This document shows, piece after piece, positions 37,641 to 52,529 of a stretch of DNA of 64,000 nucleotides; positions within the stretch are counted from its first letter, which is position 1; every line of letters starts with the position of its first letter. The stretch spans positions 512,001 through 576,000 of the forward strand of contig CBDCJO010000001.1 of NCBI GenBank assembly GCA_965217865.1. Reading direction: 5' to 3'. The translations under genes and the position numbers were made by a program. Below the pieces are notes generated by a model. It did no database searches. It saw nothing but the letters and a program-made list of their open reading frames with translations, and was not told where the DNA came from. The stretch comes from Candidatus Latescibacterota bacterium (GTDB lineage Bacteria > Latescibacterota > UBA2968 > SICM01).

Positions 37641-39524
37641 TCACGAAACCGGTCTGTTGAAGGCGACCCGCCTCAAAATTCCTTTCCCCTGTTCGATCTC
37701 GTAAGTGAAACCCGCCTCAAGGTTCTCCAGAGATTCCGTTGAACCTCCGGGCCACCTAATCGACAGACGATCCACCCGGTTCCGGCCCCCAAGCCCGAAC
37801 GTTAAGGTGGTCTCGCTCTGGCTGAGATAGGAGGAACCCGTGCGAACCATCGACTGCTGCTCCATGTCCCCGGCGATTGCGGTGACGATCGCCCCCAGGG
37901 CTTGCAGGTTGGGCGACGCCCCCTTCAGGTGCAGGCGAACGGCCTGCCCAACCGGCCCATCGTTCCGGGCGAGAAAGGCGGGACCACCGCAGGTGGTTAG
38001 GACCAGATCCAGGTCGCCGTCGCCGTCCAGGTCCCCTGCGGCCATACCCCGCGCGACCAGACCCATGTCAAAGGGGGATCCGGATCTGTCCGTCACCTCC
38101 CGGAAGACCCCTTCACCCGCATTCCAGAAAAGCTGCGGCCGCTGCGCGTAGGAGATATCCTTCTGAACGCTCTGGATTTCGGGTTCGATATGGCCGTTTG
38201 CCAACGCAAGGTCCGTAAATCCGTCGAGATCATAGTCTAAGAACAGAAGCCCGAATGTGAGCCTCGGAAGACTCGCCTGCGTAATTCGCCTCCCGCCCGC
38301 CTCATCGATGAAGACCCCCCCGCCCGCCTCGCGGTACATGGAGACAGGCTCACGGCTGAAGTTTCCAATCGCGATCGAGAGGACACGGTCGTTGTCCAAC
38401 GAGGCCACGTCCACCCCCATCCCTGCGCGGGCCCTTCCCACCTCATCATACGCGACGCCAGAGGCCAGTGCAACGTCCTCAAAGCTCCCGTCTCCCCGGT
38501 TCCGATACAAAAAGTTCGGCTGAGTATCGTTCGTGACGACGATGTCGGGATAACCGTCGCCGTTGAAGTCTGCGACCGCCAACCCCATCGACTTCCCCTC
38601 CGGGTTGTAAATTCCCGCCTTTTTTGTGATCTCCCCGAAGGTTCCATCACCCAAGTTGCGGTAGAGACGACACGTCGAGCCGTCATACTGCTGAGGTGTG
38701 GCATACGACTTGTTCACCCCATCGATCGTGGTGAAAAGGTCTGTCTCCGGGGACCACCGGACATAGTTGCAGACAAACAGGTCGATCCAGCCGTCAAGAT
38801 CTACGTCCACCCATGCCCCGCCCGTGGACCACTCCGGGTTTTCTCTTCCACCTTCCCCCTTCCATCGTCCTCCTCCCACCCCTGCCTTTCCCGTGACATC
38901 GCGGAATCGTGCCCCGTCATTCCGAAGAAGACGGTTGTCCCCCATCGCAGTCAGAAAAAGATCCGCATCCCCGTCTGCGTCATAATCCCCGGCCGCCGCA
39001 CCCATCCCATATATTGATAAGGAAAGGCCCGCCTCTTTCGTGACGTCCTCGAATGTCCCGTCTCCCCGGTTTCGATACAGCCGGGAAATCGGGGCCACAC
39101 CGTCCTTATCGTGTCCCGGCCAGGTATCGCTGTTCACCAGGAAGATATCCAGAGACCCGTCGCCATCATAGTCGAACAGCGCGCACCCGCTCCCCATGCT
39201 CTCCGGCATCCACTTTTCTCCGAACGCCCCTGTTTCGTGGAGAAAGTCGATCCCCGACGCACTCGTAATGTCGGAGAAGGTGATTGACGGCGGCTCCCCC
39301 CGAACCCCGGAAAGGGTATAGTCCGCTTGGGGTTTCGCGTAGGTGGAAGGATCTATTTTCGGCTCCGACTTTTCCGGGCCGCAAGAAACCGGGTAACAGA
39401 GTATAATAAGGCACAGGAGGAGAAAGTAGGATCGAGACCGCACCGGGGAAAAATTGAAGGCCTTGGAGGTATTAATTATCGCTTTTGATCGTTCCCTCAC
39501 CATCTTGCGTAGATCAATTTCCAT
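37641..39524 (-). CDS. CRTAC1-family (FG-GAP plus ASPIC/UnbV) lipoprotein
   Basis: DYDGDG..D repeats, LYRN.GDG.F, GSSYLSQ...FGLG; PVSC lipobox. Confidence 0.9.
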   Translation of the reverse strand: MEIDLRKMVRERSKAIINTSKAFNFSPVRSRSYFLLLCLIILCYPVSCGPEKSEPKIDPSTYAKPQADYTLSGVRGEPPSITFSDITSASGIDFLHETGAFGEKWMPESMGSGCALFDYDGDGSLDIFLVNSDTWPGHDKDGVAPISRLYRNRGDGTFEDVTKEAGLSLSIYGMGAAAGDYDADGDADLFLTAMGDNRLLRNDGARFRDVTGKAGVGGGRWKGEGGRENPEWSTGGAWVDVDLDGWIDLFVCNYVRWSPETDLFTTIDGVNKSYATPQQYDGSTCRLYRNLGDGTFGEITKKAGIYNPEGKSMGLAVADFNGDGYPDIVVTNDTQPNFLYRNRGDGSFEDVALASGVAYDEVGRARAGMGVDVASLDNDRVLSIAIGNFSREPVSMYREAGGGVFIDEAGGRRITQASLPRLTFGLLFLDYDLDGFTDLALANGHIEPEIQSVQKDISYAQRPQLFWNAGEGVFREVTDRSGSPFDMGLVARGMAAGDLDGDGDLDLVLTTCGGPAFLARNDGPVGQAVRLHLKGASPNLQALGAIVTAIAGDMEQQSMVRTGSSYLSQSETTLTFGLGGRNRVDRLSIRWPGGSTESLENLEAGFTYEIEQGKGILRRVAFNRPVS

Positions 39525-39527
39525 TTT

Positions 39528-42470
39528 TCATTTTCCGTTTTCTCCGTTCTCATATGTACCTAGACGACGTCCATCGGAAACCCATAGCGGCACCGGCCTC
39601 CGATAGAGCGGCTGTGTGGACCGCGTGTCTTCAGGATGTCTTAGCAGATAGGTCCTTGTGGCCTCTTTCGCAGATTCATCGATCTGATAGACGAGATAGG
39701 CCTTTTCAGCACCCTCAGCCTCCTTCGTCCTGCCCAGTGCCCGAAGCGCGAGCATCCTGTGATAATGGGCGACCCGGTGCTCGGGATCGATCTCAAGCAC
39801 ACGCCCCATAGCCTCCAGGGATTCGATAAACTTTCCGTCCAGGTAGAGGACCCGCCCAAGATTCGACCAGGCCGCCCGATCCTCGGGAAAGTCCTGAAGG
39901 ACCCGCCGGTAGGCATTGGCGGACCTTTCATATCGGCCGTCCTCCTGAAGCACGATCCCCCAGACCCAGGCATTCTGCGGATCGTTGGGTGACAAACCTT
40001 CGGCGATCTGGATCTGTTTGTAGGCCTCCAGGATATTTCCGTCTTTTACCGCGGTTCGGGCTAAGTTGCGGGGTCCGTCTGGCAGGTCCGGAGCCAGGGA
40101 GGCGACCCGTACGAAAGCCCACTGCGCCCATTTCGTCTCGTTCTGGAGGAGAAGCCCGATCCCGTAGTCGTTAAGTCTTGACCACGCCACCCCTGGCTTT
40201 ATCTCCGTTTCCACCGCTGCGATCCCCGCCCCTTTGGGAAGGACAGGAAGCACGACTTCGTCCTTTGCGATCTGGGTGATCGGAAGGTCCGGCACCCTTT
40301 CGAAGCCCGCAAACCCGACCCGATTGGCGTGGAAAGCGAACTCAGTGTACTTCCGATCGAACTTTCGCCAGAGGAGTCGGGCCCGCAACGTCAATTCATT
40401 GCTTGAGGGATTTTCCGGAACTCGGAACGAATATCGGGCGACATCAGCGGTCCCCGGTCCGATCACACGGACATAGACCGAAGTAAAGATGTCCTGGGCG
40501 TTGCGACGGTGGATCGCATTACCATAACGATCGACCAGGAGGGCCTTGTAGAAATGTGCTTCGGGGTCAACGTGACCGTCCGCTCGAACGAAACCGTTGA
40601 CCGCGATCGGACCGCCCTCGGAATCGACGACGGAAAATTCCAGCCAACCCTCGTTCGAATCATTCGTTCCGCCCGGGAAGGTGTGCCCGACACCCTGGTT
40701 CCGGACGACCACATCAACCGAGACTTCGTCTCCGGCTACAACCGCGGGACGGATCGCGTCCAGGGGACCGATGGGCGTCCCAGACTCCCCCCGACGGATC
40801 GCAAACAGATCCACCCGCAGTTTCTCATCCTGCAGGAACGATTCGATCCTCCCGATCGTTTCTTCGTCCCCACGCAAAAACGGGAGAGCGGTGTTAACAG
40901 CCAAAAAACGGTGAGACCTGACGAAGCCGTCCTTGGCCGCCACGTCCCCCCGAAAGACCTTTTCCAGAGGCATGTGACAGTCCTGGCAGATTCGCTTGTT
41001 CGATGGAAGATAGAAGGTTCGCGAAGCGTTGCGCGCCACTCCGCTGTCGTGCCAGTTGTCGAACTCATCCTGCCCTCGCACCCAGCGGTAGCCGTTCAGT
41101 CTGACATCTAGGCTTACTTTGTGGCAGGTTGCGCAGAACTCAGGGGACCGGAAGAACGGCTTGAGCATCTGGCCCTTGTGGACAGTGGGTTTTGCTTTGA
41201 GGGCTGCGTCATGGATTGCCTGACCCAGGGTGTTCTTCGAATCCGCGAAGAGATAGGGATCCTCCTGTTCATCCGCGATATTGTAACCCCCGTTTCCTGT
41301 CCGGTTGTGGATCTTATCGATGGCGTGACAACCCAGGCAGGTGAGACCGGCCTGAGCCTGTGCGCTTCGTCGGTCGATCGGTTCGGTCATCTTTCCGGCC
41401 AGCATCAACGCCGGGTCGTGACAGCCGGAACACCACTTGGACTTCACAGAGGCCTCCCGTCCTTTGAGTTCCTCGTAGTGGACGAGGTGGGCTTGAACTT
41501 CCGGATTGGAAGATCTCGAATTTTCACGCATGTCGTTGATCGTGGCCTCATAAAACGGATTGTTGAACGAAGCGAAGCGGTGGGCGGACCGGGACCACTG
41601 TTCCACGATGTCGGCGTGGCAGCGCGCGCAGGTCGCTGCGCCAATCTCTTCATTCACCACAAAGCCATATCGATCTAAGTCCGGGGAGAGCCGATCCGGC
41701 CGCGAGATGTCCCCTCGTGTGATGATCCGCGACGGCAGGAAGTCTCCCGTGGTCGTGGTCGCGGCTGACGGAAAGAACGGGCTGTCGGTCGGCACATAGT
41801 TTGCAGGGAGAAACCCGTCCCGAACGTAGGCGGTAAGGTCCCGGGCCCGGGCCCCGGGGCCCCTGTCTTTCCCCGCGGAAGCCGCAATCCGCGCTTCTTC
41901 GGTCAGGACCATCCCTCGGGGACTCATGCCGTGGCCGATGATCGCCAGGAAGGCAACTGCCAGGACAGCGGCGATCCCGTTCCGGATCGTGGTGCGTGAC
42001 GGTGCTGAGATCGATACCAGGCGGTGGTAGAGATAAACGGAAGGGACCAGACCCGCACAGACCACGTGAACCCAGAATGCCCACCGATTGTCACGGCTGT
42101 TGGCCGCGGTGAGGATAAACAGGCCGGTGACTGCAAGGACAAGGCCGCCGATGACCAGGGTTACCCCGGAGTTAATCGAGGTTGGGTGCCGCCTTCTCCA
42201 CACACCCGGCAGATGCCAGATGAGAAACACGACCGCGACCAGGACCATGGCCAGTCCCGCCCCGGTGTGCAGGAGAACCATCCCCTGAAAGAGCCTGGGG
42301 AGAGCCAGTTCCGTGAGGGCGAAATATCCGATGCCCGCCGCTCCGGCGACGCGATTCGCCAGGAGATAGAGCGTGTTTCCGAAGACGAAGACCCCAAGGG
42401 CAACGAGCAAAAGGAGGAGTCGTCGCTTTCCCCCTTTCAAACCGAATTGTTCATCTCGATCGTTCGGCAC
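39528..42470 (-). CDS. Membrane-anchored pentaheme c-type cytochrome with C-terminal TPRs
   Basis: About 5 N-terminal TM helices; CARCH, CSGCH, CLGCH, CATCH, CQDCH; TPR tail. Confidence 0.88.
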   Translation of the reverse strand: MPNDRDEQFGLKGGKRRLLLLLVALGVFVFGNTLYLLANRVAGAAGIGYFALTELALPRLFQGMVLLHTGAGLAMVLVAVVFLIWHLPGVWRRRHPTSINSGVTLVIGGLVLAVTGLFILTAANSRDNRWAFWVHVVCAGLVPSVYLYHRLVSISAPSRTTIRNGIAAVLAVAFLAIIGHGMSPRGMVLTEEARIAASAGKDRGPGARARDLTAYVRDGFLPANYVPTDSPFFPSAATTTTGDFLPSRIITRGDISRPDRLSPDLDRYGFVVNEEIGAATCARCHADIVEQWSRSAHRFASFNNPFYEATINDMRENSRSSNPEVQAHLVHYEELKGREASVKSKWCSGCHDPALMLAGKMTEPIDRRSAQAQAGLTCLGCHAIDKIHNRTGNGGYNIADEQEDPYLFADSKNTLGQAIHDAALKAKPTVHKGQMLKPFFRSPEFCATCHKVSLDVRLNGYRWVRGQDEFDNWHDSGVARNASRTFYLPSNKRICQDCHMPLEKVFRGDVAAKDGFVRSHRFLAVNTALPFLRGDEETIGRIESFLQDEKLRVDLFAIRRGESGTPIGPLDAIRPAVVAGDEVSVDVVVRNQGVGHTFPGGTNDSNEGWLEFSVVDSEGGPIAVNGFVRADGHVDPEAHFYKALLVDRYGNAIHRRNAQDIFTSVYVRVIGPGTADVARYSFRVPENPSSNELTLRARLLWRKFDRKYTEFAFHANRVGFAGFERVPDLPITQIAKDEVVLPVLPKGAGIAAVETEIKPGVAWSRLNDYGIGLLLQNETKWAQWAFVRVASLAPDLPDGPRNLARTAVKDGNILEAYKQIQIAEGLSPNDPQNAWVWGIVLQEDGRYERSANAYRRVLQDFPEDRAAWSNLGRVLYLDGKFIESLEAMGRVLEIDPEHRVAHYHRMLALRALGRTKEAEGAEKAYLVYQIDESAKEATRTYLLRHPEDTRSTQPLYRRPVPLWVSDGRRLGTYENGENGK

Positions 42471-42559: not shown

Positions 42560-42697
42560 GCTTCCCCCGATCGGATATAAACGGTCCCCCGTGAATAATC
42601 GCTCCTCAACGGAAAGCGTTACCTATGATTCCCCTTGTCCTGTAACTGAGCGTTTATATATTTCAACGACAACATTTCAACGGCAACCGAGGCAATA

Positions 42698-43302
42698 GTA
42701 AACCACCCCGCCCAAAGGGCGGGGCATTAACCACTCCCATCCCCAAACAGATCCAACTGTAGGGGCCCTTTCTGCTCTTGACGATGATACCGAATATATT
42801 GCTCAATCACTTCAGAAGTCACCTTGTCGCCTACGGTGCGGGCAAAATAACCATCTTCCCAGAATTCTCCACCCCATAACTCCCGTTTCACCTCTGGATG
42901 TTCTCGGAAGACCCCGCTGCCCGAAATACTCTTCAAAATGCCCACTACCTTAGAAATCGAATACCGGGGAGGAAACGACAAGAAAATATGCACATGATCT
43001 TCGGCCACTTCCATCTCTTGGATGTCAAAACCAAAATCCTCTGCTATCCGATGAAACAGCTTGCCCACATACTCTCGAAGGTCACCTCGCAAAATCCATT
43101 TCCGATACTTCGGTGCCCATACCAGATGATACTGGCTATCATAGACTGCGTGACTGGTCCGTCGGAGTCCCATCGTATGCCTCCTGAGTCGATATGAGTC
43201 TCAGTGGTCTGCACACGATAAGACAGCCTTTTAGCTTGCCTTCGGCAAGCTAAACTTTTCCTCCCCTTCCAAAGGAAGGGGTATCCAAGTCCAAATACTT
43301 TC
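42698..43302 (-). mobile_element. IS200/IS605-family element (tnpA only), 605 bp
   Basis: Subterminal hairpins CCCCTTCC-AAA-GGAAGGGG (43263-43281) and CCCCGCCC-AAA-GGGCGGGG (42706-42724); guide/cleavage pairs GATA/TCAT and AATG/TTAC. Confidence 0.88.
42727..43173 (-). CDS. tnpA: IS200 Y1 (HUH) transposase
   Basis: YHLVWAPKYR, DHVH, FWEDGYF, YIRYH; AGGAGG RBS. Confidence 0.96.
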   Translation of the reverse strand: MGLRRTSHAVYDSQYHLVWAPKYRKWILRGDLREYVGKLFHRIAEDFGFDIQEMEVAEDHVHIFLSFPPRYSISKVVGILKSISGSGVFREHPEVKRELWGGEFWEDGYFARTVGDKVTSEVIEQYIRYHRQEQKGPLQLDLFGDGSG

Positions 43303-44922
43303 ATGAAAGAACCGATAAAAAATCAATCATGGATTCTTCTTCTGGCTCTCTTCATCTGCGCAGACCAGGGCAATTCCGATGATCCAATGCCCGATGATCC
43401 ATCCCGGGCCATCCTTTTTTTCGGGAACAGCCTCACCGCGGGTTACGGCCTCGATAAAAAGGCGGCTTTCCCCGCCCTGATCCAGGAAAAAATAGACCGT
43501 ATGAGCTGGCCTTATATTGTTGTGAATGCGGGACTGAGCGGGGAAACATCCGCGGGGGGCCTCCGGCGAATCGATTGGATGCTCAAAAAACAGTTCGAAC
43601 TTATTGTGATCGAACTCGGGGGAAACGACGGCCTCCGGGGCGTCCCGCTGGAGGAGACCCGAAAAAACCTCAACGCCATCGTTGACCGAATTATCGAACG
43701 GGGCCCGCAGGTAAAAATCGTCATCGCAGGGATGCAACTCCCCCCCAACCTGGGTTCCGATTATACAGGTGCATTCAAGTCCATATATCCGAACCTTGCG
43801 AAAAAATACAATACGCCTTTAATCCCCTTCCTGTTAAAAGGAGTTGGGGGGGACCCGAATCTCAACCTGCCTGACGGGATCCATCCCAACGCCAAAGGGC
43901 ACAAAATCGTCGCGGAGACCGTATGGGCGACCCTCAAACCGATTTTGCAATCGATTCAAGAGGCACAAGCCGAGCCCCCGCCGGAAGGAATAAAGGCTGC
44001 GGTCGAACGCGTGGCCTTTGGTTCCTGCCTCCGCCAGGACAGGCCGCAGCCTGTCTGGAAGTCGGTCCTGGAAACCGCCCCTGATGTTTTTGTCTTCCTC
44101 GGGGATAATATCTATGCCAACACGACGGACCCGGAGGTGATGCGACGAAAATATGGGTTGTTGAACGGACAAGCGGGATTCAGGACCCTCAGGAATCGCT
44201 GTCGAATTCTCGCCACCTGGGACGATAACGATTACGGATCGAACGACGGCGGTGCAAACTATCCGATGAGAGGCCTTTCGCAACGGATATTCCTGGATTT
44301 CTGGAGATGGTCCGAGGGATGGTCACATCCGGGCGTCTATCAGTCCAGGATCCTCGGTCCGCCGGGTCAGGAAGTGCAGTTCATCCTTCTTGACACACGA
44401 TATTTCAGGTCAAACCTAGTAGGGGAATCCGGCCTATATCGTCCCAACGCCGAACCAGATGCGACCGTCCTTGGCGACCTTCAGTGGAAATGGCTCGAAG
44501 AGGAATTGCGCAAACCCGCCGAAGTACGGATAATCGCCTCGAGTATTCAGGTCATACCCACAGAGCACAGATGGGAAAAATGGGCCAATTTTCCCAGAGA
44601 ACGGGAAAGGCTTTTCGGGCTTATCGCATCAACGGGAGCCAACGGAGTCGTCTTTTTAAGCGGGGACAGGCACCTTGCGGAAATCTCCCGGCTGACGACG
44701 GGTGTTCCTTACACACTGTATGAAGTGACTTCAAGCCCGTTGAACCAGAAAGGAGGGGGAAGCAGCGCGGAGCCGAACCGCTTCAGGATAAGCCAGAGCA
44801 ATTATCGAGAGGGGAATTTCGGCTTGATCACCATCGACTGGGATCGTCGGGTTCTCAAGTTGGCCATCCTTAATGAAGGTGGAGCGGAAGTGTTTTCGCA
44901 GCGTGTGCCCCTGATACATTGA
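43303..44922 (+). CDS. TesA-like SGNH arylesterase fused to PhoD alkaline phosphatase
   Basis: Signal peptide; GNSLTAG, NAGLSG, GGND, DGIHPN; then FGSC, GDNIY, WDDND, LDTRY, SGDRH. Confidence 0.88.
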   Translation: MKEPIKNQSWILLLALFICADQGNSDDPMPDDPSRAILFFGNSLTAGYGLDKKAAFPALIQEKIDRMSWPYIVVNAGLSGETSAGGLRRIDWMLKKQFELIVIELGGNDGLRGVPLEETRKNLNAIVDRIIERGPQVKIVIAGMQLPPNLGSDYTGAFKSIYPNLAKKYNTPLIPFLLKGVGGDPNLNLPDGIHPNAKGHKIVAETVWATLKPILQSIQEAQAEPPPEGIKAAVERVAFGSCLRQDRPQPVWKSVLETAPDVFVFLGDNIYANTTDPEVMRRKYGLLNGQAGFRTLRNRCRILATWDDNDYGSNDGGANYPMRGLSQRIFLDFWRWSEGWSHPGVYQSRILGPPGQEVQFILLDTRYFRSNLVGESGLYRPNAEPDATVLGDLQWKWLEEELRKPAEVRIIASSIQVIPTEHRWEKWANFPRERERLFGLIASTGANGVVFLSGDRHLAEISRLTTGVPYTLYEVTSSPLNQKGGGSSAEPNRFRISQSNYREGNFGLITIDWDRRVLKLAILNEGGAEVFSQRVPLIH

Positions 44923-45015
44923 ATATTGAAGATCGGAGAATTGAATATTTTAAAAACTCAGGACTTTCATGTGCCCTTTTGAATCTCGCATTTCAATATT
45001 CTTCAATCTTCAATT
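44919..45015. repeat. AT-rich heptamer inverted repeat between convergent genes
   Basis: TTGAATA/TTGAAGA units facing TTCAATA/TTCAATC units; GAATATTGAA/TTCAATATTC is a perfect inverted repeat. Confidence 0.55.
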
Positions 45016-45026
45016 TCCCCTGACCC

Positions 45027-47576
45027 TCATTCTACATTCCTCAGAACCTCCAGGGGCGGACGACTTATCACCCCATGGATATTGAGCATCCCGAGCAGGA
45101 TCGTCAACCCGATCACAAGCGTAAAAATCAGAGCAAGGGGGACGAACGGGATCGCAAATGCGATATCAAACACAAACCTCGCCAGAATCCATCCCCCCGT
45201 AAGAGCCAGTCCCATCCCGGTCAATGTCGCAAGACCACCCAGTAAAAGATACTCGAGCAGTTGAATCTGGACGATCTGACGTTGGGAGGCCCCCAGAGTG
45301 CGGAGGAGGACCGCTTCGTGAATACGCTGATAGCGGTTCGCGATCACGCACGACGCAAGAATGATGAACCCCGTAAGCGTGCTGAACAGCGCCATAAACC
45401 GAATCACGGATCCCACCCTGGATAGGATCTCGTCCGCCGTCTTCAGAATCAAACCGAGGTCCAGTGAGGAGACATTGGAGAATCTCTGAACGAGCCTCCG
45501 TTGCAGCTTTGCGGATTCTGCCTGTGAACGCACCCGCGTGGTCAACACCGAAAATTGGGGGGCCGACTCCAGGACCCCCGCCGGAAATACCACAAAAAAA
45601 TTGGGCTGCACCCGCTGCCATTCGACGTTCCGGATGCTTCCCAAAGTCGTGACGATCGGGACCCCTTGAACGTCAAAGGTCACGGTGTCCCCCAGTGTCA
45701 CCCCCAGCCTCTGTGCGGTTCTTTCCTCCATCGAGATCGGCACCGGCCCGCCCCCACCGGTCACAGACCCTGTCCACTCCCCTGCGACGATCTCCTCAGA
45801 CTCAAAAAGATGATCCCGGTAGGTCGACCGGTATTCCCGCCTTAAAGCCCATCTGGATACCCTCGAAGACTTTCGCAGTGAATCCGCGCTCTCTCCTTTC
45901 ACCGAGGCGACCCGCATCGTCACCACCGGGGACCGGTGCAGAATCGGTAGATCGTAAGATCGAACAAGGTCCACCGTCTCATCAACCTGATCGGTCTGGA
46001 TATCGAACAGGACCAGGTTAGGCCGGCCTTCACCCCCGGCGAGGGAAATCTGTCGAATCAATGAAAACTGTGAAATATAGAGTATGGCGATCAAGGAGGT
46101 CCCCAATCCCAGGGAAAGCATCATAACCAGGGTCTGGTTGTTCGGCCGGTAGAGGTTTGCCAGGGCTTGCCGCCACACGTATCTCCACGATCTGGGGAAG
46201 AATCGCCTCACGAGCTTCATCAAGAGATAGGCGACCCCCGCAAGCAGCCCAAATGCCCCCCCAAGCCCGGCGATAAGCCCCAAACCCGCTTTCCAGTGAC
46301 CCGTCTGAACAGCCCCTAAAAGACCGACAAGGAGAATGATCATCAGAAGAATTCCGATTCGGAGGGGATCTCTCGCTTTACCGGACCCTTCATAGGCCGT
46401 CCGCAAGGCGGCCAGGGGTGAGGTTCTGCGGATCGAAACCAGGGGATGCATGGCAATCATGAGGCTCAACCCAAGGCCGATCGACAATCCCTGCAAAACG
46501 GCTTTCAACGAAGGATTTACGGAAACCTCCACGGAGGGGAAGAACCCGCCCAGAACATTCGGAAGGAGTTGTTGGACAAAAAGACCCATCAAGCCCCCTC
46601 CGAGAGAACCGATCAAACCCATGGACGCCGCCTGGATCAGATAGATCGTAAAGGCCTGACGGTTCCGGGCCCCAAGGCACTTAAGGACCGAGATCGTCAC
46701 CAGTTTTCCGCGGATATAAACGTGAATACTTGCCCCAATCCCCACACATCCCAGGAGCAGCGCGACGAACCCGGTCAGACTCAGGAAATGGTCAAGGTTA
46801 TCGAGCATACGGCCCCATCTCCTTTTGCGCCGGTCTACGGTTTCGTATCTTAAATCCTGTTCGGCCAGCTGTGGCTCAATCCTCTTTAAGAGCCCCGTCA
46901 GCATCTCATCCTCAACCTTAAACAACACGCGGTAAGTTGCCCGGCTCCCGTGTTGGATGAGATCCGTCCGATCGAGGAGGGAGAGCGGGATAAAGACAAC
47001 CGGGGCGACCATCATGCCGGCCGGTCCCTCGTCCGGGACCCGGTTCAACCGCCCTGCAATCCGGAAGGTCAGGTCCCCTAAACGCGCGGAGTCCCCCACC
47101 GCAACGCCGTACTGGAGCATCAACCCTTCGTCCAGAAGGGTCTCCCCTTTCCCTTGATATCGCTCCGCGGCTTCCCGAGGTTCTGTCAGGAGCCTTCCGT
47201 AATAAGGAAACGCATCCCCCACGGCCCGTACCTGAACCAGGCGCGTCCCCCCGCCTTTGGGGAAATAGATCATCGAAACAAACCGAACTTCTCGAGATTG
47301 AAGGCCGCCGATCGAATCGATCAGGGCTTCGGTCTTCGGATTAAACGGCCGCGATTGACTCAGGACCAGGTCCGCTCCGAGAAGGGTCTTGGACTGGGCG
47401 TTCACGGCATCCTCAAGGTTCTCCTTAAATGAACGTATCGCAACAAGAGCGGCAACACCCAGAAGGATTGACGATACGAAAAGAAGCAGCCGTCCCCGAT
47501 GGGATCTGCTGTCCCGCCAAGCCATTTTCCAGACCCAAGGGTCAAAAAGAGGAGCCATGGATTTAATCGAAGTCAT
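45027..47576 (-). CDS. ybbP: YbbP-like (MacB/FtsX) ABC permease
   Basis: AWRDSR, LLGADL, PYYG, DIQTDQ, V.W....PNFFVVF, LRTLGAS. Confidence 0.88.
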   Translation of the reverse strand: MTSIKSMAPLFDPWVWKMAWRDSRSHRGRLLLFVSSILLGVAALVAIRSFKENLEDAVNAQSKTLLGADLVLSQSRPFNPKTEALIDSIGGLQSREVRFVSMIYFPKGGGTRLVQVRAVGDAFPYYGRLLTEPREAAERYQGKGETLLDEGLMLQYGVAVGDSARLGDLTFRIAGRLNRVPDEGPAGMMVAPVVFIPLSLLDRTDLIQHGSRATYRVLFKVEDEMLTGLLKRIEPQLAEQDLRYETVDRRKRRWGRMLDNLDHFLSLTGFVALLLGCVGIGASIHVYIRGKLVTISVLKCLGARNRQAFTIYLIQAASMGLIGSLGGGLMGLFVQQLLPNVLGGFFPSVEVSVNPSLKAVLQGLSIGLGLSLMIAMHPLVSIRRTSPLAALRTAYEGSGKARDPLRIGILLMIILLVGLLGAVQTGHWKAGLGLIAGLGGAFGLLAGVAYLLMKLVRRFFPRSWRYVWRQALANLYRPNNQTLVMMLSLGLGTSLIAILYISQFSLIRQISLAGGEGRPNLVLFDIQTDQVDETVDLVRSYDLPILHRSPVVTMRVASVKGESADSLRKSSRVSRWALRREYRSTYRDHLFESEEIVAGEWTGSVTGGGGPVPISMEERTAQRLGVTLGDTVTFDVQGVPIVTTLGSIRNVEWQRVQPNFFVVFPAGVLESAPQFSVLTTRVRSQAESAKLQRRLVQRFSNVSSLDLGLILKTADEILSRVGSVIRFMALFSTLTGFIILASCVIANRYQRIHEAVLLRTLGASQRQIVQIQLLEYLLLGGLATLTGMGLALTGGWILARFVFDIAFAIPFVPLALIFTLVIGLTILLGMLNIHGVISRPPLEVLRNVE

Positions 47577-47642
47577 TGATCGGCAAACCTGTTTCGGGAG
47601 AAGGACGGGAAATTGTGAAGTGGAGGGGTTAAAGGATCGGGC

Positions 47643-48335
47643 TTACCAAGATGCGGGATCCCCATGGCCATCGGACAGGACCGCGCCTCCCTTCAGTTTG
47701 ATAACCCGCTGGCTGCGACCTGCAAGCTCCAGGTTGTGGGTGGCCATGATCAGGGTGGTTCGGGCTTCGCGGTTCAATTCAAACAACAGATCCACGACCC
47801 TCTGACTCGTATCGGCATCCAGATTACCCGTCGGCTCGTCGGCGAACAAGATCTTTGGCCGGTTGACAAACGCCCGAGCGATGGCCACCCGCTGCTGTTC
47901 TCCCCCGGAGAGTTGGGCGGGATAATGCTCCAGACGCTCCCCGATGCCCACTCGTTCCAGGAGGTTCTCGGCCACGGCCCTTGAATCGCTCTTCCCGCGA
48001 AGCTCCAATGGGACCAGGACATTCTCAAGAGTCGTCAGGGTTGGAATGAGGTTGAAATTCTGAAAAACGAAGCCTACGTATAGGTTTCGTAATCTTGCCC
48101 GCTCATCCTCATTCAGTCGATCCAGACACACCCCTTGAAGGGTCACCGAGCCGGAACTGGGGCGATCGAGCCCTGCGCACAAACCCAGAAGGGTTGTCTT
48201 GCCGCTTCCAGAGGGACCCACAATCGCACAGGATTCGCCTTCAGAGAGTGAAAGGGACACATCCCTCAGGACCGTCAGCGCATGGCTCCCGCTGAAATAG
48301 GACTTTGTCAATCCGTCAACTTGAAGGGCGTGCAT
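47643..48335 (-). CDS. ybbA: YbbA-like ABC ATP-binding protein
   Basis: [28 protein letters not shown]. Confidence 0.92.
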
Positions 48336-48380
48336 GGGCTATAGTTTCCAATTAATTGACATCCGATGTTGGATAACCAC

Positions 48381-49262
48381 CTATCTCCCCAGTTGCGTCA
48401 ACAACCTGTCCGGATAGTCCGTTAACATTCCATCAACCCCAAGATTCATCATGCGTCGTATATCGTCCAGGTCATTCATCGTCCACACGTAAACCTTCAC
48501 CTTATGTCGGTGGGAACTGCGAATAAAGTCCGGCGTGATCACGTGCAGTGGGCCGAGATACTCGGGGACCAGCATGGCTTCTGCGGGAGGCCGGTAAACA
48601 GCGCCCAGGTACAACCGGTTCAGGATGTAAAAGGTCAGTGCTTCAGTGAAACTGGCTGCTGAGGCTGTTTCTGGGCAGAGGCGCCTGAACTCGCTAATTA
48701 TCCCTGCATCCCCCGAAGCGACGATCACACCATCCGTCATACCGAAGCGGTGGATCGTCTGGCATAGCGATGGGCCGATAGCGGGGTCGGAGGATTTGAT
48801 CTCAATGTTAACGTGAACTTCCGGGAATGCCGAAAAGACTTCCGCAAGCGTGGGAACCCGAATCCCCCGACCTCGGTACGGAAAGCTTCTCCCCCCGTCA
48901 TCGCTCCATCGGTAGCCCGCATCCAGTTTCTTGAGTTCCGCCAGGGTAAATTCCTCAACCCTTCCTGTTCCGTCCGTGGTTCGATCCACCGTCCGATCGT
49001 GAAGGATGACAAGGGCCCCATCCGCGGTGCTTCGCAAATCCATATCGAGGACATCCACACCCCGATCCAGGGATCTTTTAAAGGCAAAAAGCGTGTTTTC
49101 CGGCCAGGCGCCAAGGCCGCCGCGATGCGCAAAAGTGAGGACCCTCTGGTTGGAGTGAAAAGGATGGGAAGGAACAGGCTGGACGAGGTTCCCACGAATG
49201 CCGAAGACCAGCCCCAATGACACGATAATTCCGGCAGTGACTATAAAAATAAGCTTTCGCAC
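48381..49262 (-). CDS. Glycerophosphodiester phosphodiesterase
   Basis: AHRGG, PENT, HDRTVDRTT, NIEIK, VWT, TDYP; N-terminal anchor. Confidence 0.92.
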   Translation of the reverse strand: MRKLIFIVTAGIIVSLGLVFGIRGNLVQPVPSHPFHSNQRVLTFAHRGGLGAWPENTLFAFKRSLDRGVDVLDMDLRSTADGALVILHDRTVDRTTDGTGRVEEFTLAELKKLDAGYRWSDDGGRSFPYRGRGIRVPTLAEVFSAFPEVHVNIEIKSSDPAIGPSLCQTIHRFGMTDGVIVASGDAGIISEFRRLCPETASAASFTEALTFYILNRLYLGAVYRPPAEAMLVPEYLGPLHVITPDFIRSSHRHKVKVYVWTMNDLDDIRRMMNLGVDGMLTDYPDRLLTQLGR

Positions 49263-49558
49263 AGCACCGACATCGTGAAGATTAAACCCGAGATGATTGG
49301 TTCCTCTGGATGTGTGCAGATTTTATCGTCCTATCGCAGACCTCGCTTCGCTCGCGCGAACCCAGCTCGCTTATCGGGGGGAGGACGGAGGAACCTGTCA
49401 AGGGAAGGAAGGCACCTTGTTTCTTCCAGAAGGGAGAAATTTACCCTTGCGAGAGTTAAAAAACCGGGCTACATTCTCAACATCCTGGAAACACAGGTGA
49501 TCCGGTTGATCGGTTCTCATCGCAATAACCTGCTTTGCAAGTTTGCGGAGGTCTGCCA

Positions 49559-49816
49559 TTGAAGGTCGAAGTCCGCATGTTCGCTTACTTCGACAAATAC
49601 CTGCCCCCCCATGCCGATGGGCGAAAAGCCACGGTGGAACTCCCCGAATCCGCCAACGTGGAAACCCTCGTTTCGCATCTCGGAATCGCAGAGGATGAGA
49701 TGGAGGGGGATTACATGCCCTACGTCGTCATCATCAACGGCGAACACACGGCATGCGATGCCCCCCTGAATGACGGCGATCAAGTCAGCCTTTTCCCCCC
49801 CTTACCCGGGGGTTGA
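49559..49816 (+). CDS. MoaD/ThiS sulfur-carrier protein
   Basis: Beta-grasp pattern ending FPPLPGG; GGAGG RBS; TTGCGA-17-TACATT at 49447-49475. Confidence 0.85.
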   Translation: MKVEVRMFAYFDKYLPPHADGRKATVELPESANVETLVSHLGIAEDEMEGDYMPYVVIINGEHTACDAPLNDGDQVSLFPPLPGG

Positions 49817-49875
49817 ATCCCTTGACACCCGGCCTGCGATCCGATAAATTTTGAATTCCTCAATTCGCAGCTCGC

Positions 49876-50817
49876 ATGAACCTGTTGGAAAAGGAGCGCA
49901 CCATGCAAGACTCGATTTATCGACACGCAAAGGTGGGACTCGTTCATTTCATGGCCTATAAACAGACCATGGGCGGTGAGGGTCCTATCATAGAGACCCT
50001 CTCGGGATTGGCGACAGACCCTTATTTCGAAGTCGTCGAGATAACCACGATCGCGGACGAAGCCGTCCGCACGCAAGCGAGGGATCTGCTTGAATCAGCC
50101 CACGTTGAGGTTGCCTTCGGGGGGCAGCCGATCCTCCTGAGAAATAAGCTCAATCTCAACGACGAAGACGCCGTGGGCCGAAAAGCCGCTGTAGACGCGA
50201 TGATTGCCGCACTGGAGGAAGCTGAGTTTATCGGAGCACCCGGAATCGGACTTTTGAGCGGAGTCGATCCCGGGGAGTCCGGACGGGAAAAGGGTGTAGA
50301 CCTTCTGGTGGACTCCCTTGGACAGATCTGCGCGGATGCATCGGGCCGAAATATGCGGGTGGTGTTGGAGACGTTCGATCGCCTCCCTTACGGAAAGAAC
50401 TGCCTTGTCGGACCCAATTCGCTGGCCGTAGAGGTATCGGAGCGAGTCCGGGCGGACCATCCGAACTTCGGTTTGATGCTGGACCTGAGCCACCTCCCGC
50501 TGCAGGGGGAGACTCCGAGGGATGCCCTGCCCCTGGCCAAAGACCATCTCGTCCACGCGCACATCGGAAACTGCGTAATGCGGAACCCGGACCACCCTGC
50601 CTATGGAGACAATCATCCGAGGTTCGGTTGCCGGGACGGCGAAAACGACATCCCTGAACTCGTGGAATTCTTAAGAATCCTTAAGGACATCGGCTATCTG
50701 AATCCTGACGACAGGAAAATCCTGAGCTTCGAAGTGGCCCCCATGGATGGCGAAAGCTCAGAAGTCGTCATCGCCAACTCCAAACGGACCTTGAACGCGG
50801 CATGGGCCCGGGTGTAG
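49876..50817 (+). CDS. Sugar-phosphate isomerase/epimerase TIM-barrel protein
   Basis: LETFD, LDLSH, HAHIGN, GDNHP, SFEV; promoter TTGACA-17-TAAATT at 49822-49850; start may be the second ATG. Confidence 0.85.
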   Translation: MNLLEKERTMQDSIYRHAKVGLVHFMAYKQTMGGEGPIIETLSGLATDPYFEVVEITTIADEAVRTQARDLLESAHVEVAFGGQPILLRNKLNLNDEDAVGRKAAVDAMIAALEEAEFIGAPGIGLLSGVDPGESGREKGVDLLVDSLGQICADASGRNMRVVLETFDRLPYGKNCLVGPNSLAVEVSERVRADHPNFGLMLDLSHLPLQGETPRDALPLAKDHLVHAHIGNCVMRNPDHPAYGDNHPRFGCRDGENDIPELVEFLRILKDIGYLNPDDRKILSFEVAPMDGESSEVVIANSKRTLNAAWARV

Positions 50818-50978
50818 GACAGAATAAGACGGATTGAAAAGTTTGGGATAGGAGAAGGAGGAAAGTGAGGGGGAAGTAGGGAGGTCGGTGGAACTTGGCA
50901 TTAGTCGAATCCGGGCACCAGCCGTGCCCGGATTTTTATTTACCTTGAGGATATTCAGCTTCAACCTGGCGATCATGC

Positions 50979-52529
50979 CTAATCCGCATTCACGACGGCT
51001 TTCTCCGTTTGCGAATGTAAAAAGGCATTGTGATCGTAATCGAGGGCTCCTTTCGGGAGCCACTCCCAGAAAGGCCCCAAGTCCACCCGAATCTTATCCA
51101 GGAAAAACCGAGGGAGTTGGGTTGTTTCCTGTTCGAAAAAGTCTCGGAACGGCTTATCGACATCCAGCCGGCGACGGATTTCAGAATAATATTTGATCCG
51201 GCCGACACCCTGGTTGGATCTCGCTCGTAAAACGTTCATCCATCTCCAATTTGTGGGTTGCATTCCTTTGTATCGACGTACGATCGATCGCCACGAAAAA
51301 GTGTACTTGTTTATATCAATCATGTGTTCAAAGAACTGTGACCAGGTATAGTTCTTGGGCTTGACGTTCATCGCCTCCTGCGTGTTCAGAAAATGAAACG
51401 GAAAGGGGAGAACCCGATTTTCCCGTTGATATTCGAGGTTAAGCGGGGCGGACTCCCCGAAAGCGGAAAGTAAACAAAAGGCAGGATAGGCCCCGGGTGC
51501 AAGGTCTACGAATAGCTTGGTTGCTTCAAACGGTTCCGGTCCGTCGTCGACATCCAGCCCGTGGACAAAGTTCGCTTGAAGATACGGGATGTAGCTCATC
51601 ACCATATTGATATGATCCGAGACCAGACGTACTTTTTCCATCCCGACCCTTTTTCCGGTCTTCGATTTATTCCCCATGTCAAACCAGGACTCGATCCCCG
51701 GCATCATGACTTTGAAGCCGATTTTCTTGAGCCGCTTCAAACGGGCCTCTGAAAGCAGGGAGAGGCTGCTTTCCCCGTAATAATCGATGCTGCCCGGAGG
51801 AACGGCTTCCTCGATCGCGTCGATGCATTCATCGAACCGGACGCCGAAGTTTGGATCGTGCCAGCTAACGCGTGGGTGTTCGAACTTTGTCAAAAGAAAG
51901 CGCAGATCCTCTTTGATCACGTCGAATTCGAGCTGCTGGTAGGGAATGACCGAATCCGTACAGAAGCTGCAGGTATAGGGACAACCCAAGCTGCCGATCA
52001 TCGGGACCATCTTAAGCATGGGCGCTTTTTTCAAAGTCGGTTCGATAAAATTCCAGCGCTCTTTTACGCCCGGAAGCTCGAGGGGCTGCTTCTCCGCAGA
52101 TACTTGGAGCCCGAACGGCCGGTGTGGAGAACAATCCTCCAGGACATCCCGGATAACGGTTTTATCGGTGAATCCGAAGACATAGTCGAAATATTTTGAG
52201 GCATCACCCGGAAAACCCCGGGCGTGGGGGCCGCCGATTGCCGTAACCGCACCTCGCGATTGGAACAGATTGCTCAGGGCATAGGCCAGCTGCGCCGTAT
52301 GGGAATACGCGCCGATAAAGACAAGATCGACGTCGTCAGGAATTTCATTGATCAGGTCCTCAAACCCCGTAAAACACACAAACCTGACATCGTGGCCATC
52401 TTGTTCGCACCACGCGCCGATTACCTGGGGCATGATGCTCGTGAGGTTTGGATGCATGACCCGAGCCCACAATGTGGTGGCGGGGGCTTTCGTAACCAGG
52501 TCGATAATTCCGACACGCAGCTTTTTCAT
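50979..52529 (-). CDS. B12-binding radical SAM protein
   Basis: IGGPH in the cobalamin domain; GCPYTCSFC. Confidence 0.88.
   Translation of the reverse strand: MKKLRVGIIDLVTKAPATTLWARVMHPNLTSIMPQVIGAWCEQDGHDVRFVCFTGFEDLINEIPDDVDLVFIGAYSHTAQLAYALSNLFQSRGAVTAIGGPHARGFPGDASKYFDYVFGFTDKTVIRDVLEDCSPHRPFGLQVSAEKQPLELPGVKERWNFIEPTLKKAPMLKMVPMIGSLGCPYTCSFCTDSVIPYQQLEFDVIKEDLRFLLTKFEHPRVSWHDPNFGVRFDECIDAIEEAVPPGSIDYYGESSLSLLSEARLKRLKKIGFKVMMPGIESWFDMGNKSKTGKRVGMEKVRLVSDHINMVMSYIPYLQANFVHGLDVDDGPEPFEATKLFVDLAPGAYPAFCLLSAFGESAPLNLEYQRENRVLPFPFHFLNTQEAMNVKPKNYTWSQFFEHMIDINKYTFSWRSIVRRYKGMQPTNWRWMNVLRARSNQGVGRIKYYSEIRRRLDVDKPFRDFFEQETTQLPRFFLDKIRVDLGPFWEWLPKGALDYDHNAFLHSQTEKAVVNAD

Follow-up and report, generated by a model that had tools for sequence, protein, structure and literature searches.

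We analyzed a 64,000-nucleotide stretch of DNA (the window; contig CBDCJO010000001.1, positions 512,001 to 576,000) from a Candidatus Latescibacterota bacterium, in which one gene joins a TesA-type SGNH esterase to a PhoD phosphatase domain and converges on an operon made of a GDPD-family gene, ybbA and ybbP (Table 1). The reading that we favor, with moderate confidence, is that the locus encodes a YbbAP-TesA system and an adjacent likely lysophospholipase D, which would together clear lysophospholipids from the inner membrane, and that a PhoD domain was fused to TesA in a narrow lineage and is likely weakened in the allele found here. The layout itself had been described in an earlier note on this DNA and was confirmed by domain matches and coordinates. 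The intergenic gaps within the GDPD-ybbA-ybbP operon are 45 and 66 bp, and the convergent stops of the fusion gene and ybbP lie 104 bp apart. In the 6.4-Mb genome, the fusion gene is the sole TesA and the sole PhoD found, and this YbbP locus is the only clear one found.

The GDPD-ybbA-ybbP operon and its convergent tesA

The ybbP product matches the Pfam family FtsX twice as well as MacB_PCD, and its best NCBIfam model is NF041854 YbbP (344 bits), while that of the ATPase is NF007879 YbbA (274 bits), both scores being below cut-offs that are centered on E. coli (999 and 336, respectively). We recognized a YbbAP system by a YbbA-type ATPase and a YbbP-type permease with duplicated FtsX/MacB parts encoded in one operon, and both were found here. 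The closest named YbbP relatives are from Latescibacterota, with up to 66% identity. We compared the locus with 80 related ybbP loci, which were the best 80 of 553 matches. A tesA gene adjoins ybbP in 74 of them, in the convergent orientation seen here in 59 and divergent, as in E. coli, in 15. All 74 neighboring TesA proteins stand alone, with frames ending at most 39 residues past the domain. A GDPD gene was present in 41 of the 80 loci, including 27 from Latescibacterota and 8 from Gemmatimonadota, and of the 70 loci with 2.5 kb or more of sequence upstream of ybbAP, 39 have it immediately before ybbAP. PhoD was found in none of the 80. Based on these counts, the conserved unit is GDPD-ybbA-ybbP with a convergent tesA, and PhoD is a late addition. 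The synteny of GDPD, ybbAP and tesA on which the earlier note depended is thus conserved, but PhoD does not belong to the conserved locus. A search of the open-access literature found no description of a link between GDPD and ybbAP.

The GDPD carries an N-terminal membrane helix at residues 4-22 (hydropathy of 2.69; residues 2-26 in the structural model, which has a predicted local distance difference test score, pLDDT, of 90.5), which the GDPD neighbors in related loci also appear to have, and its basic N-terminus suggests a periplasmic orientation. For this model, Foldseek placed LyPls-PLD and S. aureus LpgD in the top six positions; T. tengcongensis GDPD and GlpQ came after them, with GlpQ structures ranking 9 and lower (root-mean-square deviation of 3.8-4.1 vs. 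2.3-2.7 for the best lysophospholipase D chains). According to the available passages of the LpgD study (PMC10404611), this enzyme converts lysophosphatidylglycerol to lysophosphatidic acid and is set apart from GlpQ by its N-terminal membrane helix and a helix 6/loop 7 groove. When we mapped these labels onto the GDPD ourselves, its family profile aligned to LpgD (8GHH) without a gap across the apparent helix 6/loop 7, whereas 2PZ0 showed a gap of 11 residues. Residues H46, H88, D75 and E154 are present, and Asp73 stands where a metal-binding Glu is kept in 39 of 40 relatives.

The GDPD shares with S. aureus LpgD (8GHH; PMC10404611) and the lysoplasmalogen-specific phospholipase D (7YM0) the same barrel, the N-terminal membrane helix, both catalytic His and, ahead of the last strands, a long hydrophobic helix and a loop, but is about 31% identical to them, scores below the cut-off of the NCBIfam LpgD model and has Asp in place of the first metal Glu. 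Moreover, unlike LpgD, it is encoded with an ATP-binding cassette (ABC) system. Taken together, the modeled fold indicates that the enzyme resembles membrane-anchored lysophospholipases D (LpgD/GDE4 type) more than GlpQ, which is a likeness and not a membership. The release of glycerol-3-phosphate proposed in the earlier note fits this model poorly, as the protein has the appearance of a lysophospholipase D, with lysophosphatidic acid as its product, rather than of a GlpQ-type enzyme. A second, shorter GDPD is encoded elsewhere in the genome.

The TesA half has all of the catalytic residues (S43, G80, N108, D191 and H194) and deviates from 74 relatives at none of 49 conserved columns. The solved E. 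coli complex (PDB 9GE8; PMC12646458) supports the link between TesA and YbbAP that the earlier note had cited. In the passages available from that study (PMC12646458), E. coli TesA docks on YbbP through Asn138 and Tyr143, which correspond here to N149 and Y154 of the LPPNLGSDY loop, lysophospholipids and acyl-CoA are given as candidate substrates with the natural one left open, and extraction of lipids by YbbAP is proposed but unconfirmed. Both systems bring ybbA, ybbP and the gene of an exported TesA together at a single locus, and the TesA model superimposes on chain T of 9GE8 with a TM score of 0.91 (by target). They differ in that the E. coli tesA is divergent, in that Ser/Asp stand here in place of the Arg141/Arg142 pair of the E. 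coli enzyme, and in that the locus studied here has a lysophospholipase D-like gene before ybbA and a PhoD domain at the C-terminus of TesA. The GDPD gene kept upstream of ybbAP suggests that lysophospholipids are the substrate of YbbAP-TesA.

The TesA-PhoD fusion and its distribution

In the fusion protein, the matches to Lipase_GDSL_2 (residues 39-202, E 8.7e-29) and PhoD (residues 251-490, E 4.3e-20) are both above the Pfam cut-offs, and a short hydrophobic stretch at the N-terminus (11-residue hydropathy of 2.9 from residue 10) points to export by the Sec pathway. The earlier note had called for read support across the linker, and contigs from three studies bridge it, confirming that the fusion is real. 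Indeed, in run X6 of study P3, a single contig of 11.8 kb spans positions 43302-45300 unbroken, with 17 letters different, and contigs of X3 and X10 (P2) and of X11 (P4) also bridge the linker; none of these contigs comes from runs X1 and X2, which are the best DNA matches and possibly the window's own sample. The same architecture occurs in six more database proteins (88-99% identical), the seven falling into two 90% clusters, and none of the seven has a stop or a frameshift. An assembly artefact was therefore ruled out by the spanning contigs and these six proteins. In a close relative that bears the fusion (P0129, P0132), ybbP was called in two pieces.

The fusion is restricted to a single narrow lineage. 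Both Pfam families occurred together only in P0001 and P0002 among the best 120 of 3678 matches, and the same two were again the sole two-family proteins among 120 of 140 long TesA-like proteins. Only one of 41 genomes (G000) had both halves in one frame, and in the 22 other genomes bearing a compact PhoD (of 151), the matches sit in frames of 314-441 aa; the compact PhoD core usually stands alone, at about 350 aa. When 1.84 billion representatives were searched, none of the best 150 matches had both domains, a weak negative since the query's own fusion is not a representative in that set. A wide distribution was not found in the genomes and in the capped protein sets searched. The domain-architecture search proposed in the earlier note thus had a mixed outcome: the fusion exists, in seven closely similar proteins, but PhoD is absent from the conserved ybbP locus. 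We found no description of a PhoD-SGNH fusion in the open-access literature.

A metagenome scan revealed a second SGNH-PhoD protein (L140:5884-7572) with 64 close relatives (P0253-P0316). These Planctomycetota-type proteins, with named members from Fuerstiella and Rubripirellula, have the same domain order and size as the fusion studied here. Both PF13472 and PF09423 were matched in 49 of the 64, and their PhoD halves are 45-53% identical to ours, but their SGNH halves are of another subfamily (median of 22% identity to the TesA half, 1 of 64 at E<1e-3). All 64 keep WDDHD, and the single locus examined is without ybbAP. Where named, they are annotated as alkaline phosphatase D or hypothetical proteins. 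Because the SGNH halves belong to different subfamilies, the pairing likely arose twice. A quick tree, for which a careful search is unfinished, separates our PhoD from those of the Planctomycetota fusions, and an approximately unbiased test on 35 rows did not reject their grouping (p 0.31). This second pairing lends modest support to a functional link.

Partner domains of nine kinds, many unrelated to lipids, were found on 14 of 33 long compact-PhoD representatives. The fused domains include GDPD, ceramidase, SASA, GH43, sulfatase, PI-PLC, beta-lactamase, peptidase and others. Those fused to GDPD, ceramidase-family or PI-PLC domains (P0334, P0339, P0351, P0367) hint at lipid head-group substrates for part of the compact PhoD family. 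The neighbors of stand-alone compact PhoD genes showed no lipid theme in 47 open reading frames (ORFs) picked from 89.

These data bear on a first alternative, which we consider rather unlikely, that the PhoD tail is incidental, i.e., a promiscuous exported phosphatase that was captured behind tesA and uses the TesA signal peptide, serves as a general phosphatase unrelated to YbbAP and is being lost in this sub-lineage. The two clusters among the 120 listed of each protein set are consistent with this, as are partners such as sulfatase, GH43 and SASA and the 91 other PhoD loci, many of them short, without a TesA, YbbP or GDPD neighbor, and the changes of two near-invariant residues and the insertion at the start codon described below could also be seen as signs of loss. 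However, the seven reading frames are intact and PhoD is as conserved as TesA, several of the other partners (GDPD, ceramidase, PI-PLC, the second SGNH type) have lipids or phosphoesters as substrates, and the two residue changes recur together elsewhere.

The PhoD active site, the insertion and the flanking genes

All metal ligands are kept in the PhoD half (C242, D268, Y271, D307, D308, N314, D315, D455, H457), based on the Fe3+/2Ca2+ set of the B. subtilis PhoD structure as given in the available passages of PMC4223295. Like B. subtilis PhoD (2YEQ), it has the Cys-type ligands and an Asn272-to-Asp variant that those passages call common, but it consists of a catalytic core of about 305 residues with no N-terminal domain matched, has no twin-arginine signal or C-terminal cap helix, and reads WDDND instead of WDDHE. 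This motif, located at residues 306-310, is as the earlier note had read it. The PhoD half of the fusion model was set aside, as its loops had a pLDDT below 50 and the alignment mixed TesA-only and PhoD-only rows. The G+C content at third codon positions was 0.63 in the TesA half and 0.61 in the PhoD half, with no clear difference in base composition.

The close homologues counted in Table 1 are the 113 that could be aligned of 118. His309 is also found in 132 of 138 compact-PhoD representatives, and WDDHD in all 91 other PhoD loci. Among the seven fusion alleles, four, including this one, have Asn309 with Asn273 (as in P0001), and three have His/Asp (as in P0002); both alleles co-occur in runs X10, X11 and X13. 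A sequencing error at WDDND was ruled out, since this motif is present in four of the seven proteins as well as in contigs of X3, X6 and X11. In a quick tree with five of the seven alleles, the three Asn rows group at 97% inside the fusion clade; hence, His/Asp is ancestral within this clade and the Asn pair is derived.

The Asn309 state needs four changes on the tree of the 138 representatives, the fusion clade included. All four other Asn309 representatives have Asn or Gln at 273, compared with none of the 132 with His309 (Fisher p 6.9e-8, only if the rows were independent), while a phylogeny-aware test of independent pairs on a FastTree tree gave a median p of 0.25 with just 6 pairs. One locus (L125), with Asn273 and His309, is a counter-example to the paired change. 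The four Asn309 representatives (P0473, P0484, P0510, P0428), which read WDDND and come from unrelated PhoD clusters, are without the Asn314 kept here and could represent a PhoD subtype with a rearranged active site. Another protein, P0465, has lost several ligands and has the look of a pseudo-enzyme.

In Dbr1 and MPE, according to the portions available of the respective papers (PMC5113202, PMC7826289), the His that follows the metal-binding Asn is the general acid, and its change to Asn abolishes activity on the natural substrate but spares that on bis-p-nitrophenyl phosphate (bis-pNPP), 42% of which is kept by Dbr1 mutants. Similarly, changes of CthPnkp His264 bring cyclic phosphodiesterase activity down tenfold, in the part of that study available (PMC3675462). 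By analogy, the Asn273/Asn309 allele likely loses a His-Asp general-acid unit, which would lower its activity on glycerol phosphate. The loss of near-invariant His309 and Asp273 in this allele counts against the pipeline of the earlier note. Our literature search found no paper joining PhoD, WDDHE and the active site.

An insertion sequence (IS) of the IS200 type lies directly before the ATG of the fusion gene, and 11 further near-full copies were found in the genome. Most copies share ATGAA, which forms the start of the fusion gene and which we take to be the target site. The element is polymorphic and absent from some other strains, since contigs of X3 and X11 join across it. It separates a GAGG at 42689-42692 from the fusion ATG, the nearest Shine-Dalgarno-like run ends about 20 nt before this ATG, and a hairpin comes with the element at 43230-43254. 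These features of the DNA suggest lower expression of the fusion in this strain; no RNA run appeared among the public runs listed for the locus. Counts in a promoter and terminator scan were at chance level. Using a Pho-box-like pattern, no such site was seen upstream of the GDPD gene and one weak match with three mismatches upstream of the fusion, which leaves the phosphorus recycling proposed in the earlier note as a hypothesis. Furthermore, no match to the PhoA or PhoX families was found in the genome (96% complete).

Table 1. Position, strand and supporting evidence of the features described in the window.
Feature	Position	Strand	Evidence or remark
TesA-PhoD fusion gene, 539 aa	43303..44922	+	ORF call and Pfam matches
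Probable Sec signal peptide without a twin arginine, residues ~1-25	43303..43377	+	Sequence and hydropathy; inferred
TesA-type SGNH esterase domain, residues 36-215	43408..43947	+	Pfam, model and alignments
Short variable linker, residues 216-234	43948..44004	+	Alleles differ at up to 10 of 19 residues
Compact PhoD catalytic domain, residues 235-539, no PhoD N-terminal domain	44005..44919	+	Pfam and ligand set
Asn273 (AAC)	44119..44121	+	Asp in 112 of 113 close homologues
Asn309 (AAC) of WDDND	44227..44229	+	All 113 of 113 close homologues have His; public runs contain both alleles
ybbP-like Type VII ABC permease, 849 aa	45027..47576	-	Pfam and NCBIfam
ybbA-like ABC ATPase, 230 aa	47643..48335	-	Pfam and NCBIfam
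GDPD-family enzyme (PF03009)	48381..49262	-	Pfam and NCBIfam
IS200-like element	~42697..43302	-	tnpA at 42727-43173; directly before the fusion ATG

A short repeated element (44917-44970) lies between the convergent stops of the fusion gene and ybbP, with 68 local matches in the genome and a very high contig depth in public runs. On the upstream flank of the operon (49535-52529), we found a ThiS/MoaD-like gene, a sugar-isomerase-like TIM barrel and a radical SAM-like gene, the first two of which had no tblastn match in the 80 related ybbP loci. On the other side, in divergent orientation to the promoter region of the fusion gene, the minus strand encodes at 37641-42470 a protein of 980 aa that combines N-terminal membrane segments with CXXCH haem motifs and tetratricopeptide repeats, and then an FG-GAP/ASPIC-UnbV protein.

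Proposed mechanism and alternative readings

We propose that the locus could act in four steps. Judging from its likeness to LpgD, the membrane-anchored GDPD would cut the head group from a lysophospholipid, yielding lysophosphatidic acid. YbbAP would then lift the lysolipid from the outer leaflet to the docked TesA, as can be envisaged from the complex shown in E. coli, for which extraction is no more than proposed (PMC12646458). TesA would remove the acyl chain, leaving glycerol-3-phosphate or a glycerophosphodiester, from which the tethered Fe/Ca PhoD of the His/Asp alleles would free phosphate. The first three steps would be the conserved part and the fourth a late add-on, likely weak in this genome because Asn273/Asn309 likely removes the general-acid unit and the IS has come between the gene and the site where ribosomes probably bind.

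Several points weigh against this reading. All 15 divergent, E. coli-like loci come from other phyla and are without GDPD, and because the GDPD-ybbAP link was seen, among records with a phylum in their title, only in Latescibacterota and Gemmatimonadota, it may go back to one inherited event. Two genomes (G004 and G030) carry the same GDPD type far from tesA. By profile score, 2PZ0 is just above LpgD (197 vs. 191 bits), and NF053857 LpgD, although the best NCBIfam model for the GDPD, gives it 141 bits for a cut-off of 450, so that it is not a member. It is the position in the motif that suggests His309 as the counterpart of the general-acid His of other metallophosphoesterases, and the available passages of the PhoD paper (PMC4223295) are silent on this His and assign a leaving-group role to the third metal. 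Given the many unrelated domains to which compact PhoD is joined elsewhere, this fusion does little by itself to support a pipeline. Finally, the Asn alleles differ at 12 of 304 positions in PhoD vs. 12 of 180 in TesA; since PhoD is diverging no faster than TesA, this argues against simple decay.

It seems improbable to us that the locus is a three-enzyme periplasmic disassembly line for lysophospholipids (lysophospholipase D, docked esterase and tethered Fe/Ca phosphatase) on a Type VII ABC system, with the recurrent Asn/Asn PhoD as a switch that spares glycerol-3-phosphate. Slightly less probable still is a fully working pipeline as set out in the earlier note, in which TesA deacylates, the GDPD yields glycerol-3-phosphate and PhoD frees phosphate. 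In favor of this proposal, all four activities are encoded at one locus. The fusion is the sole PhoA/PhoX/PhoD-type match in the genome, GDPD-PhoD fusions exist (P0334, P0339), and B. subtilis PhoD, assayed on glycerol-3-phosphate among other phosphoesters, releases phosphate from phosphoester bonds in the available passages of PMC4223295. However, the fold of the GDPD, which is closer to lysophospholipases D, counts against it, as do the absence of PhoD from 80 of 80 related loci, the lost PhoD residues and the IS, which parts the gene from its GAGG. Least probable of all, in our estimate, is that Asn273/Asn309 defines a PhoD subtype that is retuned rather than weakened, keeps its metals and either hydrolyzes substrates whose leaving groups are good or holds on to the phosphoester made by TesA uncleaved, for the recurrent pairing and the residual bis-pNPP activity of Dbr1 mutants would fit it, but the pair test is small, L125 breaks the pairing, the Asn309 proteins without Asn314 are possibly a different case, and the covariation may mean that a partner residue disappears after the His has been lost.

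In the reading that we favor, with YbbAP-TesA and a likely lysophospholipase D acting on the inner membrane, the retention of a lysophospholipase D-like gene upstream of ybbAP in dozens of genomes provides gene-context evidence for lysophospholipids. The 2025 YbbAP-TesA paper, in the passages available, leaves the substrate open between these and acyl-CoA (PMC12646458), and the locus offers a testable three-component system. The His/Asp and Asn/Asn alleles form a natural pair with which the function of the WDDH histidine could be probed in PhoD phosphatases, which are widespread. We regard the fusion by itself as a curiosity of narrow distribution; what can be tested is the linkage to a lysophospholipase D and the paired change to Asn.

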